A stretch of DNA of 63,372 nucleotides, filler included. It is 14 parts of 14 records of this genome, joined end to end, with 100 filler letters (N's around TTAATTAATTAA, not from the genome) between each part and the next. Parts side by side here need not be neighbours in the genome. Positions count along the whole stretch, not along the records: positions 6,933 to 10,288 come from SRR15195285_1851; 13 more parts are not named here. One strand, written 5' to 3'. Numbering within the stretch: position 1 is the first letter of the stretch; every line of letters begins with the position of its first letter. The notes under the pieces are model-generated. The model did no database searches. It saw only the letters and a program-made list of their open reading frames with translations, and had not been told where the DNA came from. This document shows, one piece after another, positions 6,933 through 9,900 of this stretch. Made by a program: the position numbers and the translations under genes.

Positions 6933-9900
6933 GCCCAGCAGGGCCGCCAGCGCTCCTAGCAGCAGGACGGCGGAGACGGGCGGCAGCCGCTGTGCGAACC
7001 TGGTCACAGACTGCGGCGCGCTGCCGGACGACGCCACCGACGCCAGCGCTGCGTTCTACCGCTGCATGGACCTGGCAGCGCAGCCCGGCTGCGTGACGGT
7101 CCCACCCGGCGCATACCGCATCTCGCCGGTCGAACTGAACGTCTCCAACGTGGAGTTTCGTGTGGACAATCGGGTAGTGTTTCGACCGCACCGCACTGTG
7201 GGAACTACTGGCTCTGCAGGTGCTCTGTTCACCTTCGGGCAGCGCAAGCCCACGTCACCGAACTATGTGACCAACGTGTCACTGCATGGGTCGGCGCCCG
7301 GGTATTTTACAATTGATGTGAGCACGCCGCTGTTCAAACCATGGAAGATCCGTGCAGCAGCATTCGGTGGCATTAAGGGATTCTTAATAGCCAATGTGCT
7401 AGCGAAGATGTCCCCTGCAGATAGCCGGAGCGAGTTGCCAGATGGGGATGGGCGCAGTCAGTGGTGCGATTTTCAGACACCGACCCCCGTGCGTGCCCTG
7501 TTCCCCGTCCGTATTCCCGCTGATGGTGAGTGCGCGCTTGTGTCCCAGCCCGGCATTCTCGTTCGACTACTCAAAGTTCATGGACGGCGAGGGCGTCACA
7601 CGGCTGAATCCACAAGGCGGCGTAATCTCGAACTTATCCTCGACAGGAGCATTCGCAGGCTATGGTCTAGTCCAGCTCAGGAGCGGCATGGACATGAGCT
7701 TTACAAATTTGTGGGGCGAAGGAGGAGTGACCTTGCGACTTGAGACTGGAGATGACGGCCGAGGCTACGCTGGGAACATCAAAGGCAGCAACATCACGTG
7801 CGTAAACGGGTCCAGTGCCTTCATGGCCCAGCCGCACTGCCAGGCGAACGGCGCCTTTCATGTGACCGATCTGCTCAGCATCGGATGCAACGACGCCATG
7901 CATTTGAGCGGGGGATTTGTGTCGTTGAACAAGTGCTGTGACAACAGCTCTGGTACGCCCACGGATTGCTTGCCAGATGGCCACTATGACAACTCTAGCT
8001 CTATCTCTCGAGTGCGAACCGTATATGGCACTGAGGCACAGGTTGAGGACAGCTCAAGCACAGCGCTACCGAGCTGTGCAGCATGTACGATAGAGAATGC
8101 GCAGCTCAACTACAATGTGCACATTTCGGATGTGCAGACGATAGGGTTTCCAACGCCGTCTCAGCGAGATAGCTGTACGTTCTATCATCGTTGCTATGGC
8201 TGCGTTTACGAGGTGGGAAAGAGTGGCCCTGGATTTTGCGAGAAGCCCTGTGGGTGTCCGTATTACGGACGCCCAAACTCGACACACTTGACAACCACTA
8301 GCTCAGAAGCAAATGCAGCCGTTGGCGCTGGAGCAACTGCGTCCAAGTCTATTGCTGTCCCACCGATCACAGCAAGCGATGAGGGTTCGCTGCGGAAAGC
8401 TCTCGATATGATCAGAAGCCTATGGAAGAAGGAAGCTAGGAGAAACCATTACACCGTGCATCTACACAGACCCATTGCGATGCGAGCCCCATTGATACTC
8501 TCTGAGGAGCATGCAGGTGTGGAGCTCATGCGGGCTCCTACTGCGACCGGGCCGGTAGGACTCTATAGCCACAGTGTGAAGTACAGCGAGCCAGGTCTTT
8601 TCTCAAAAAGCTCTCCGGTGCTTCAAATCAACGGGGCACACAATGTGACTGTACGTGGTGTCACCATTTCCTTCGTTGAGTCAGGGAAGCATGCCTACAA
8701 CTTGTCGCGACTTGGACTGGCTGCTGCAGCTTTGGAGACTCGTGATGCTGAGTCCGTGCATTTGACTGATCTCATCGTCGTGGGAGGGGTGCGTATGGAA
8801 GGTGGCAAAAACAATATTCTCAGTTGGAGCGACATTTCGAATCCGTTCGGGTCAAACGGCGGTGGCACCTGCGCGCATGTGGCGTCATGTGGCAACGCCA
8901 CGACGCTCGAGTCATGCAATACCACGGTACACGACAACAACATACACGATTGCCGTGCTGTCAGCTCTCCGTATGATGCTTCCGCCCAAGGTGTGCTCCT
9001 TGGCGGAGCGGTCGCGGCGAAAGTTTGCACAGTCGGGGTAGTTGTGAGGAACAACAACATTAGTCGTGTCGATTCGTTCGGCATGCGCGTCTCAAATGAC
9101 AACTACTATCCATGCGTAAATAATCAGCTCGTTTTCAACAGGGTCAAGGAATGGGGGCAAGGTGGCCAGTCGTACGGGCACAACGGCTCTACAGATGCTA
9201 GCTGCATGTACATGTACGGCCACTGGTACTCGCCTGGCAACAACTTCAGCTTCAATTACTGCCTACAGACTTCCAGTCACTGGGGAAACAACGGCATGTA
9301 CCTGGACGATGTCGCGACGGGCCAGACAATCGTTGGGAATGTGTTTCAGGGTGTCGGGAATGTCATCAAGATGAACGGAGGCAGCTACAACACCATCGAC
9401 TCTCTGATCGTAATCAACGGTAGCAGACTTGGCTTTGGAAACTGCCGCGGGCTCCGCGGGAGCACGCCAGCTGATTACTATACATGCGAGAACCCGAACG
9501 CAGGAAGGCGATGGATGCCGATCTTAGAATCGGTCAACTATCTTGGCCCACTGTGGCATGCTCGGTGGCCATGGTACTCTGGCTGGTGCACCAACCGCAC
9601 CGCAGGGCCCCATCACAGCCTGTGCCATCCATCTGGTGCTCCTCCTGAGTATGAGTGCGCTGTCTTGAGCCGCGGAAACACGGTTGCCCGGCTGGCGGGG
9701 GTTGGAATGGTGCGCAATGACTCGTTCGCTTTCCAGACTGCACCAGGATTCCCTGCTGGGACCGGAATGTGCCCGGAGTTTGTCGTCAACAATAGTTTCA
9801 ATGCGGTTAACATCGCGCCTGAGCCATTTTTCGACCTGGACCAATTCGTCGACTTCGCGGGAGGCGATCTGACGCTGCGCGCAGACAGCGACGTGTATGC

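Follow-up and report, generated by a model that had tools for sequence, protein, structure and literature searches.

In the sea, the breakdown of sulfated galactans from algae is modelled as the work of bacteria. The iota-carrageenase CgiA of Alteromonas fortis (GH82; PDB 1H80, 1KTW and 3LMW) is a right-handed beta-helix with an N-terminal cap and carries a lid, domain A, in the form of a ~60-residue insertion after the motif GFVE; this lid belongs to the processive CgiA type and is not universal among GH82 enzymes. Lid-less Cg82Mf, also bacterial, is described in the accessible part of PMC13514251 as a random endo iota/kappa-carrageenase. As far as the available text of PMC13514251 and PMC4919138 goes, the characterised GH82 enzymes are all bacterial. 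Residue roles were taken from the accessible portions of PMC13514251 and PMC3669377; the latter lists Gln, Glu and His as highly conserved catalytic residues, with the base Asp of CgiA unlisted in that portion, and assigns sulfate recognition in CgiA_Ce to G228 and Y229 at subsite −1 and to R254 at subsite +1. Outside bacteria, the available part of a fungal genome paper (PMC5003357) places GH82 among the CAZyme families prone to loss in saprophytic fungi. In the literature searched, partly as top-ranked results, no paper tied GH82 or carrageenase to Picozoa, choanoflagellates, euglenids or flagellates.

The window analysed here is a stretch of 63,372 nucleotides, filler included, composed of 14 segments with 13 linkers (N44-TTAATTAATTAA-N44) between them. 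These are 14 unlinked contigs, so neighbouring genes are uninformative about the GH82-like gene, whose own contig comprises only positions 6933-10288 (3.4 kb) and has no linkage to any marker gene. Following translation, a frame 1 ORF at 6934-7743 contained VSNVEFRVDNRVVFRP, VTNVSLHG and FTIDV, and a frame 2 ORF at 7403-9967 contained GYGLVQ, FTNLWGEGGVTLRLETGDD, NITCVNG, AFMAQPHCQANG and GGFV. All motifs quoted in a preliminary description of this DNA, which had placed a GH82 iota-carrageenase-like domain at 6970-8160, were thus recovered, and the domain span was corrected to about 6990-8269. The gene, which probably has at least two exons, was annotated as follows.

6933-7463, + strand: exon 1 (176 aa), 5'-truncated by the contig start, ORF open to the first base
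7464-7548, + strand: probable GT..AG intron of 85 nt, shifting frame 1 to frame 2 (comparative evidence)
7549-8269, + strand: first part of exon 2, catalytic half of the GH82-like domain (PDB phmmer, family profile)
8270-8365, + strand: Ser/Thr/Ala-rich interdomain linker, in frame here and in the homologue P0003
8366-9967, stop included, + strand: second right-handed beta-helix domain (AF2 model)
9965-9967, + strand: stop codon TAG (translation)
9968-10288, + strand: 3' untranslated region (RNA contig cover)
10215-10288: multi-copy hairpin repeat at the contig end (13-mer copies, DNA depth)

Exon 1 codes for the last part of the signal-peptide region, for the N-terminal cap, which contains the motif CxxLxxDCGA, and for the first GH82-like beta-helix turns. 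The missing start was supplied by P0217 (297 aa, 98% identical, from another assembly), whose hydrophobic leader was read by eye as a putative signal peptide. The first part of exon 2 ends in a Cys-rich tail finishing in CGCPYY. In the 3' untranslated region, RNA contigs cover 9969-10211 and 10031-10181. The 13-mer of the hairpin repeat has three copies and occurs nowhere else in the window; the bin 10182-10288, which has many loose ends, reaches a DNA depth of 318, compared with ~6 over the gene.

When exon 2 (805 aa) was searched with phmmer against all PDB chains, only the two CgiA sequences matched (1h80, E=3.8e-14; 3lmw, E=4.1e-14), with query residues 22-130 aligned to chain residues 175-288. 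CgiA was also the top PDB match of exon 1 (E=9e-4, chain 23-127), for which six sequences were found at E<=10. A family profile built from 75 sequences, an 85%-identical homologue included, matched CgiA at E=8e-110 over chain 8-455, the next match being at 1e-16. Identity to CgiA is ~25%, and Pfam returned for the window's two ORFs a sub-threshold PF12708 alone (26.4 bits versus 27). The fold was examined on a model of that 85%-identical homologue, P0021, in place of the window's own spliced protein. Using this model, Foldseek gave 1h80 at E=4.8e-20 (TM 0.62-0.69; next match 3e-6), and the superposition on CgiA that had been proposed along with the preliminary description yielded VIA Z scores of 39.4-41.1 (rmsd 3.0-3.7, 348-354 residues aligned), other beta-helices scoring at most 28.6. 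The region 6933-8269 encodes a right-handed beta-helix whose sole significant solved relative is CgiA, of family GH82, and the GH82 similarity claimed earlier stands both in sequence and in fold. The protein is best labelled a eukaryote-type GH82-like enzyme, short of a proven iota-carrageenase.

CgiA and the window protein have in common the N-terminal cap, the motifs Gly-Tyr-Gly..Gln, Arg-x-Glu and Pro-His, and two Cys. CgiA differs in being without the extra Cys pairs, the intron, the eukaryotic leader and the second beta-helix module, and its domain A is missing from the window protein and from the family profile. In the predicted absence of a lid over the catalytic groove the window protein resembles Cg82Mf, which was compared through its description in the accessible part of PMC13514251.

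Residues were numbered as in CgiA (chain index +27). In the phmmer alignment, Gln222, Glu245, His281 and both Cys of CgiA align to identical residues, in agreement with the conservation proposed earlier. The Glu codon, which had been placed at 7742, lies at 7742-7744 and aligns to chain Glu218, i.e. the proton donor Glu245, invariant in the 75 sequences. Gln 7673-7675 (CgiA Gln222) is likewise invariant and His 7835-7837 (CgiA His281) nearly so; these are the residues of the catalytic water and chloride network. Gly-Tyr-Gly (7658-7666) and Arg (7736-7738) are present as well, so that the window protein has all of the G, Y, Q, R, E and H that are invariant or nearly invariant in the 75 sequences. 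Glu, Gln and His are also invariant or nearly so in 12 aligned eukaryote-type sequences. The base Asp247 of CgiA aligns to Gly (7748-7750), followed by Asp-Asp (7751-7756). Among eukaryote-type sequences this position is Gly in 15/16, Asn in 1/16 and Asp in 0/16; among motif matches, redundant cluster members counted, it is Gly in 134/153 and Asp in 8/153. Because Asp247 is replaced by Gly and most eukaryote-type sequences have no acidic residue nearby, the Asp-Asp pair being confined to the window's subclade, the chemistry may differ from that of CgiA, or the module may not hydrolyse.

The proposed intron starts with GT at 7464-7465 and ends with AG at 7547-7548, and removal of its 85 nt restores the passage from frame 1 to frame 2. 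A branch-like motif, CTGAT, lies at 7520-7524, and an alternative donor at 7461 suits the frame equally well. A short intron of 23 nt from GGTGAGT at 7526 was considered and rejected, as it misfits the frame. A DNA contig from an independent run spans 7134-7861 without gaps and with 4 other letters in 728, and the same frame break is found in the separately assembled ORFs P0217, P0030, P0032 and P0033. When compared with the metagenome locus L001, the intron stretch is 37/84 identical (44%), with 10 gap columns, lengths of 85 versus 93 nt and indels that are not multiples of three; exon 2 is 132/171 identical (77%), with 28 of 38 differences at codon position 3. None of 16 other full-length homologues has residues in this stretch. 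P0219 carries a 1-nt shift within the homologous stretch and P0218 ends directly after the Trp codon. In the 85%-identical homologue the stretch is 93 nt long and open, so that gene callers read through it. Among the RNA contigs (two metatranscriptomes and one oligo-dT run, assembled contigs only) none bridges 7473-7580 or carries a spliced junction; one (X15 record 14) enters the proposed intron by 9 nt without mismatch and ends at 7472. With its GT..AG ends, restored frame and non-coding-like evolution, 7464-7548 is probably a spliceosomal GT-AG intron, at the coordinates given in the preliminary description, and we infer that it is spliced.

A 68-row quick tree, of the kind called for earlier, placed the window sequence in a clade of 13 rows (SH-aLRT 99), 11 of which had been picked by their Cys motif; window exon 2 and P0076 also fall inside. 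For four members the source is known to be a eukaryote data set: the window sequence itself, P0021 from a single-cell assembly of Picozoa (Picozoa sp. COSAG06), P0066 from the euglenid Ploeotia vitrea and P0202 from the choanoflagellate Acanthoeca spectabilis. The remainder are unnamed metagenome proteins, the marine metagenome members of eukaryote type being P0055, P0056, P0061, P0063, P0067, P0069, P0085 and P0166. The eukaryote-type proteins and the window protein are alike in the N-terminal motif CxxLxxDCGA, four invariant N-terminal Cys, the sequence E-T-G, a short loop past the Glu and a Cys-rich C-terminal tail; the members named here by species or as marine metagenome proteins, that of the window apart, are single-module proteins of 360-440 aa. 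P0021 is the closest named relative (85%), the relatives are 33-41% identical to one another, and the window's own protein is also present in a eukaryote collection. There are 28 Cys among the 757 aa of the window protein, along with many N-x-S/T sites, against 2-11 Cys in most of the sequences lacking the N-terminal Cys motif. In the oligo-dT library three contigs match at at least 99% (X17). In GC content and tetranucleotide profile (tetranucleotide r 0.837, range 0.72-0.93) the contig falls inside the spread of the other 13 contigs; assignment to the nominal organism is based on this composition and one labelled relative. A scan of metagenome DNA yielded 15 loci: L001 and L002, which are close, and 13 weak matches to the N-terminal cap, which were set aside. 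Labels on the run records read seawater, marine, estuary or just metagenome.

The best bacterial matches have 33-38% local identity and 25-29% over most of the length. No match above 37% local identity was found in the genomes of 185,579 prokaryote species by a scan that represents a narrow sample of bacterial relatives (an 8-sequence alignment, a single peptide pattern, 18 loci), and a scan of viral contigs revealed no relative. GH82-like bacterial proteins with E-[TS]-G were found in polysaccharide degraders of the sea, namely Pontiella sulfatireligans, Flammeovirga pacifica, Saccharicrinis, Polaribacter, Aquimarina, Lutibacter, Ochrovirga and Pirellulaceae. Like the window protein, they carry Gly in place of Asp247 within a GGVTLRLE-[TS]-G core, and domain A is absent in the family profile. 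Unlike it, they have few Cys, bear T9SS, dockerin or lipoprotein signals, and are located in operon-like loci with sulfatases, GH150, GH127 and GH2; in the tree they lie on the opposite side from the window clade. Sulfatases or GH150 lambda-carrageenase-family genes adjoin in 6 of the 9 loci examined, GH127 in 1 and GH2 in 4, these being the neighbourhoods of relatives with 25-29% identity. Given the sulfatase and GH150 neighbours, a role related to carrageenan seems compatible with Gly in place of Asp247.

Based on these comparisons, the gene belongs to a Cys-rich eukaryote-type clade and is not a lone transfer. The earlier wording, in which a single protist had acquired a bacterial carrageenase, is therefore replaced, in view of the 13-row clade and of bacterial matches that do not exceed 38%. 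Any transfer from bacteria to eukaryotes would be old, given these low identities, and its direction is one that we infer.

Downstream of the GH82-like domain, the linker remains in frame in the 92%-identical P0003 despite substitutions, with length changes in multiples of three, and is crossed by an RNA contig (X14 record 10, 8229-8423). The two modules form a single continuous frame in the window, P0003, P0030, P0032 and P0033, to which the fused second beta-helix is limited, and are thus fused in the window's lineage. P0001, a stand-alone GH82-like homologue, is without the second module; stand-alone homologues of the latter include P0035, P0036 and, from the diplonemid Namystynia karyoxenos, P0041. 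The AF2 model of the C-terminal module (pLDDT 80.3, pTM 0.88) gave tied generic beta-helix matches in Foldseek and VIA (VIA Z 25-30), with no family prominent among alginate epimerase, BT_1002, tailspikes, PL6 and K5 lyase. ESM Atlas results were again generic beta-helices. Pfam had no match on the window's C-terminal segment; of its relatives, P0041 was at the PF13229 threshold and P0035-P0037 were below it. A C-terminal profile matched an adhesin cap weakly in the PDB (E=1.8e-4). The module is accordingly modelled as a beta-helix fold with PbH1-like repeats.

The overall reading that we favour, with a probability of roughly 0.55, is that of a picoeukaryote nuclear gene for a two-module beta-helix glycanase with a GH82-type module that cuts carrageenan-type galactans. 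The protein would be disulfide-rich and destined for secretion or the food vacuole. Its N-terminal module represents a eukaryote-type GH82 branch and retains the proton-donor Glu and the catalytic-water Gln and His, together with the Gly-Tyr and Arg proposed to bind sulfates at subsites −1 and +1. Without the processivity lid, it would act as a random endo-enzyme on the beta-1,4 galactosidic linkages of sulfated galactans of the carrageenan type, and the role of the base would be taken by a residue other than the Asp247 of CgiA, possibly an Asp after the aligned Gly. The C-terminal module, a second carbohydrate-type beta-helix, may act on the same polymer or an adjacent one, by binding or by cleavage.

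With respect to origin, bacterial contamination with a sequencing error at 7460-7550 would fit a short contig that lacks linkage, a family in which bacteria greatly predominate, and assembled RNA contigs that show no spliced RNA. We consider this highly improbable, since an independent DNA run that differs at strain level has the same frame break, as do four separately assembled ORFs, the stretch evolves as non-coding DNA, oligo-dT contigs match, the Cys and N-x-S/T content is high, the prokaryote scan (one peptide pattern) gave nothing above 37% local identity, and the viral scan gave no relative. A eukaryotic contig derived from prey or a co-sorted cell is unlikely too. The contigs are unlinked, and named relatives in three unrelated supergroups make a shared contaminant or prey conceivable, but their mutual identities of 33-41% exclude one single contaminant, the composition falls inside the spread of the other 13 contigs, and the closest relative is Picozoa-labelled, with the window protein itself in a eukaryote collection. 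We conclude that this is a genuine, transcribed and probably intron-bearing gene of a marine single-celled eukaryote, and the non-contaminant origin proposed in the preliminary description is upheld by intron comparison, oligo-dT matches, composition and clade.

As to function, it is possible, although we tend to doubt it, that the same family acts on another substrate, such as a phytoplankton or bacterial exopolymer, a prey wall glycan or an own surface glycan. The loss of Asp247 in all 16 eukaryote-type sequences, the absent domain A, the low identity to CgiA, the run labels and the lifestyle of the named relatives, which are planktonic or benthic phagotrophs and not seaweed associates, would agree with this. 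However, the putative sulfate-reading Tyr and Arg (−1, +1) are retained together with Gln, Glu and His, the genes of the bacterial E-[TS]-G relatives lie close to carrageenan and sulfatase genes, and a lid-less GH82 is still an iota/kappa-carrageenase according to the accessible part of PMC13514251. Gly at the Asp247 position and the fusion to a second, possibly catalytic, beta-helix could also point to an enzymatically dead, lectin-like module that binds sulfated glycans and targets its partner. This we regard as improbable: Glu, Gln and His are near-invariant in both the 12 eukaryote-type and the 75 sequences, exon 2 differences fall mainly at third codon positions, most bacterial relatives in catabolic loci carry the same Gly, and stand-alone P0001 has no second module to target.

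The carrageenan-type glycanase favoured here suggests that protists of this kind may themselves be able to digest sulfated polysaccharides from algae. More tentatively, Picozoa-like cells, acanthoecid choanoflagellates and phagotrophic euglenids might share a GH82 subfamily with a different base that depolymerises sulfated galactan gels and colloids, the window's lineage having a two-headed version. The clade offers a natural experiment on GH82 mechanism, with the acid kept, the base moved or lost and the lid absent, and comparison of intron evolution can be used to check the eukaryotic origin of short unlinked contigs in single-cell-style assemblies. Picozoa-like cells are reported to feed on colloids, and for these the gene provides a concrete candidate digestive enzyme. 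If the reading is true, and an expressed, intron-bearing GH82-like clade exists in phagotrophic protists that are not related, some of them could attack such polymers themselves, and a step of the carbon cycle now credited to bacteria would partly be the direct work of heterotrophic flagellates.

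The 63-kb window (1-63372) is divided by 13 linkers of the form N44-TTAATTAATTAA-N44 into 14 contigs of 3.0-8.3 kb each, and is a chain of unlinked contigs, not a single locus. As the contig carrying the GH82-like gene covers 6933-10288 only, nearby genes were unusable as context, and neighbour-gene arguments across any linker are invalid. The features concerned are:

5255-6262, minus strand: DPP-IV-like ORF (protein with a DPP-IV N-terminal domain), adjacent unlinked contig
7464-7548, plus strand: likely GT..AG intron of 85 nt, excision of which joins two homology-supported frames
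10391-14242, plus strand: EGF/fibronectin-III (FN3) repeat protein of >1,280 aa, adjacent unlinked contig

Both the EGF/FN3 protein and the DPP-IV-domain protein are of a type typical of eukaryotes. The 3′ end of the gene's contig (10215-10288) is a hairpin-forming repeat, with a 13-mer present three times, inverted and direct, around T/A runs. Depth over the repeat was ~318 in a DNA run from seawater, compared with ~6 for the gene, and many different sequences flank it. It resembles a dispersed, multi-copy element at which the assembly breaks.

Two long plus-strand frames overlap. Frame 1 is open up to position 7743; frame 2 opens at 7403 and is closed by a TAG at 9965-9967. Each motif quoted in the preliminary description was found in their translation. 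Using phmmer against all PDB chains, the 805-aa product of frame 2 starting at 7550 matched solely the two sequences of CgiA, the Alteromonas fortis iota-carrageenase (E=3.8e-14 and 4.1e-14; residues 22-130 on chain 175-288). CgiA was also the top PDB match of the 176-aa frame-1 product (E=9e-4, chain 23-127). When 1.84 billion representative proteins were scanned in full, 477 matched at E<=1e-3. A profile of 75 full-length relatives matched CgiA over chain 8-455 (E=8e-110); its second PDB match (1e-16) was confined to the N-terminal cap. Domain A, the CgiA lid, is an insertion of ~60 residues absent from both the profile and the window protein.

A structural model was built on P0021, an 85%-identical homologue, in place of the window's spliced protein (pLDDT 80.3, pTM 0.82). 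Foldseek placed CgiA (1H80) first (E=4.8e-20, TM 0.62-0.69); the second-ranked family had E=3e-6. VIA-align gave Z 39.4-41.1 for CgiA (rmsd 3.0-3.7 over 348-354 residues) and Z <=28.6 for all other beta-helices. Since CgiA came first by both methods, the alternative that the best match is another beta-helix family fails. The domain is classed here as a GH82-family homologue, short of a demonstrated iota-carrageenase. In the 663-aa relative P0060, the GGVTLRLETG core occurs twice (residues 47 and 478), and a complete GH82-like domain is preceded by the C-terminal half of another, which suggests a tandem or permuted arrangement.

The frame change at about 7460-7550 could have been a sequencing error. 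An independent-run DNA contig differing at 4/728 letters covers 7134-7861 gap-free, and separately assembled ORFs recur: P0217 repeats frame 1, with identical read-through to the identical stop, and frame 2 recurs in P0030, P0032 and P0033. The break is therefore no assembly error. Excision of 7464-7548 leaves a Cys codon at the junction, with Pro-Ala-Phe encoded next; a donor at 7461 is equally compatible. Compared with L001, a metagenome locus encoding P0001 (85% protein identity to the window gene), exon 2 was identical at 132/171 positions, and 28/38 differences fell on codon position 3. Over the intron, identity was 37/84 with 10 gap columns (85 nt versus 93 nt); GT, AG and the CTGAT motif are kept there. 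In P0021, the read-through residues make up an insertion that is missing from 16/16 other full-length homologues of a 19-row alignment; these residues had low model confidence. In P0219, a P0001-type variant, a 1-base frame shift falls within the intron-homologous stretch. P0218, of the 92%-identical type, terminates just past a Trp codon, a stop codon and a contig end being indistinguishable in the protein. Among assembled RNA runs compared with the gene, no contig bridged the site, and one extended 9 nt into the intron, which counts against splicing. An intron at 7464-7548 is likely.

The GH82-like gene is a transcribed eukaryotic gene: an oligo-dT RNA library contains three contigs that match it at >=99%. 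In GC content (0.558) and tetranucleotide profile (r 0.837), its contig falls inside the spread of the other 13 (r 0.72-0.93). The product has 28 Cys in 757 aa and many N-x-S/T sites, in which bacterial relatives differ. The leader, truncated at the contig start, was provided by P0217 and has a Met run followed by a Leu-rich core; read by eye, it is a putative signal peptide. Among 18 loci (one genome per species, single peptide pattern), no prokaryote match exceeded 37% local identity, and a viral scan gave zero relatives of the window gene.

In the gene product, a GH82-type module without the lid is fused to a second beta-helix. In both the window and the 92%-identical P0003, the GH82-like domain, a Ser/Thr/Ala-rich linker and the second domain are in frame, and an RNA contig traverses the linker. 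In the 85%-identical relative, the gene terminates after the first domain; being single-module there, the fusion is specific to the window's lineage. At that relative's loci L001 (1-2366) and L002 (1-1773), a convergent alpha/beta-hydrolase (BD-FAE) gene lies ~95 nt past the GH82-like gene, whose upstream neighbour is a divergent PhyH-like gene. Intergenic gaps are ~100-200 nt, and this tight packing points to a compact genome. The second domain (8366-9964) was modelled as a right-handed beta-helix (pLDDT 80.3, pTM 0.88) and gave generic matches only. It forms its own family, with stand-alone members of ~465-545 aa (P0035, P0036, P0037 and P0041); one stand-alone homologue is labelled as coming from the diplonemid Namystynia karyoxenos.

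The nearest relatives are environmental proteins of 85-100% identity, one being labelled Picozoa sp. COSAG06. Remoter relatives (33-41% identity) have in common conserved Cys pairs and, at the N terminus, a CxxLxxDCGA motif; among them are transcripts labelled Acanthoeca spectabilis and Ploeotia vitrea and one further EukProt protein. A quick ML tree (68 rows hand-picked from 150 listed matches, CgiA left out; 407 columns, SH-aLRT only, midpoint root) grouped the 12 eukaryote-type rows with P0076 in one clade (SH-aLRT 99). Its sister (SH-aLRT 98) comprised four sequences with the CgiA-like Glu-Thr-Asp motif, and all 18 named bacterial rows fell on the opposite side. The preliminary description's observation of a GH82-like domain on the 6933-10288 contig was confirmed at the level of sequence. 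Its interpretation was supported in part: a eukaryotic GH82-type gene with a likely intron stood; a lone transfer was not borne out, given this clade with relatives labelled Picozoa, Acanthoeca and Ploeotia.

In the alignment to CgiA (numbering is chain index + 27), Gln222, Glu245 (codon 7742-7744), His281 and two Cys are identical in the window protein; Asp247 is replaced by Gly, followed by two Asp. According to PMC13514251, Glu245 donates the proton and Asp247 is the base, while Gln222 and His281 assist. The window protein retains six residues described in PMC3669377: Gln, Glu and His of the catalytic set, and the Gly, Tyr and Arg of sulfate recognition. After Glu-Thr/Ser, Gly followed in 134/153 motif matches and Asp in 8/153 (fetched proteins, cluster duplicates counted). 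At nine Gly-form bacterial loci (37 ORFs scanned), whose proteins are only 25-29% identical to the window protein, a sulfatase or GH150 lambda-carrageenase-family neighbour was present in six, GH2 in four and GH127 in one. Judged by these neighbourhoods, a Gly in place of Asp247 looks compatible with a part in the catabolism of sulfated galactans. In L016, L021 and L027 (Pontiella sulfatireligans, Flammeovirga pacifica), Gly-form genes directly adjoin GH150 genes, and in L016 also GH127 and a sulfatase, which hints that the Gly-form subgroup may act in lambda- or mixed-carrageenan breakdown. For the window's own module, substrate and mechanism are what we infer.

A literature search found no paper describing such a GH82-type protist clade. 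Because GH82-like genes occur in at least four bacterial phyla versus scattered protists, a bacterial origin of the eukaryote-type genes would be the simplest reading. The window gene's group is an undescribed clade of protist sequences.
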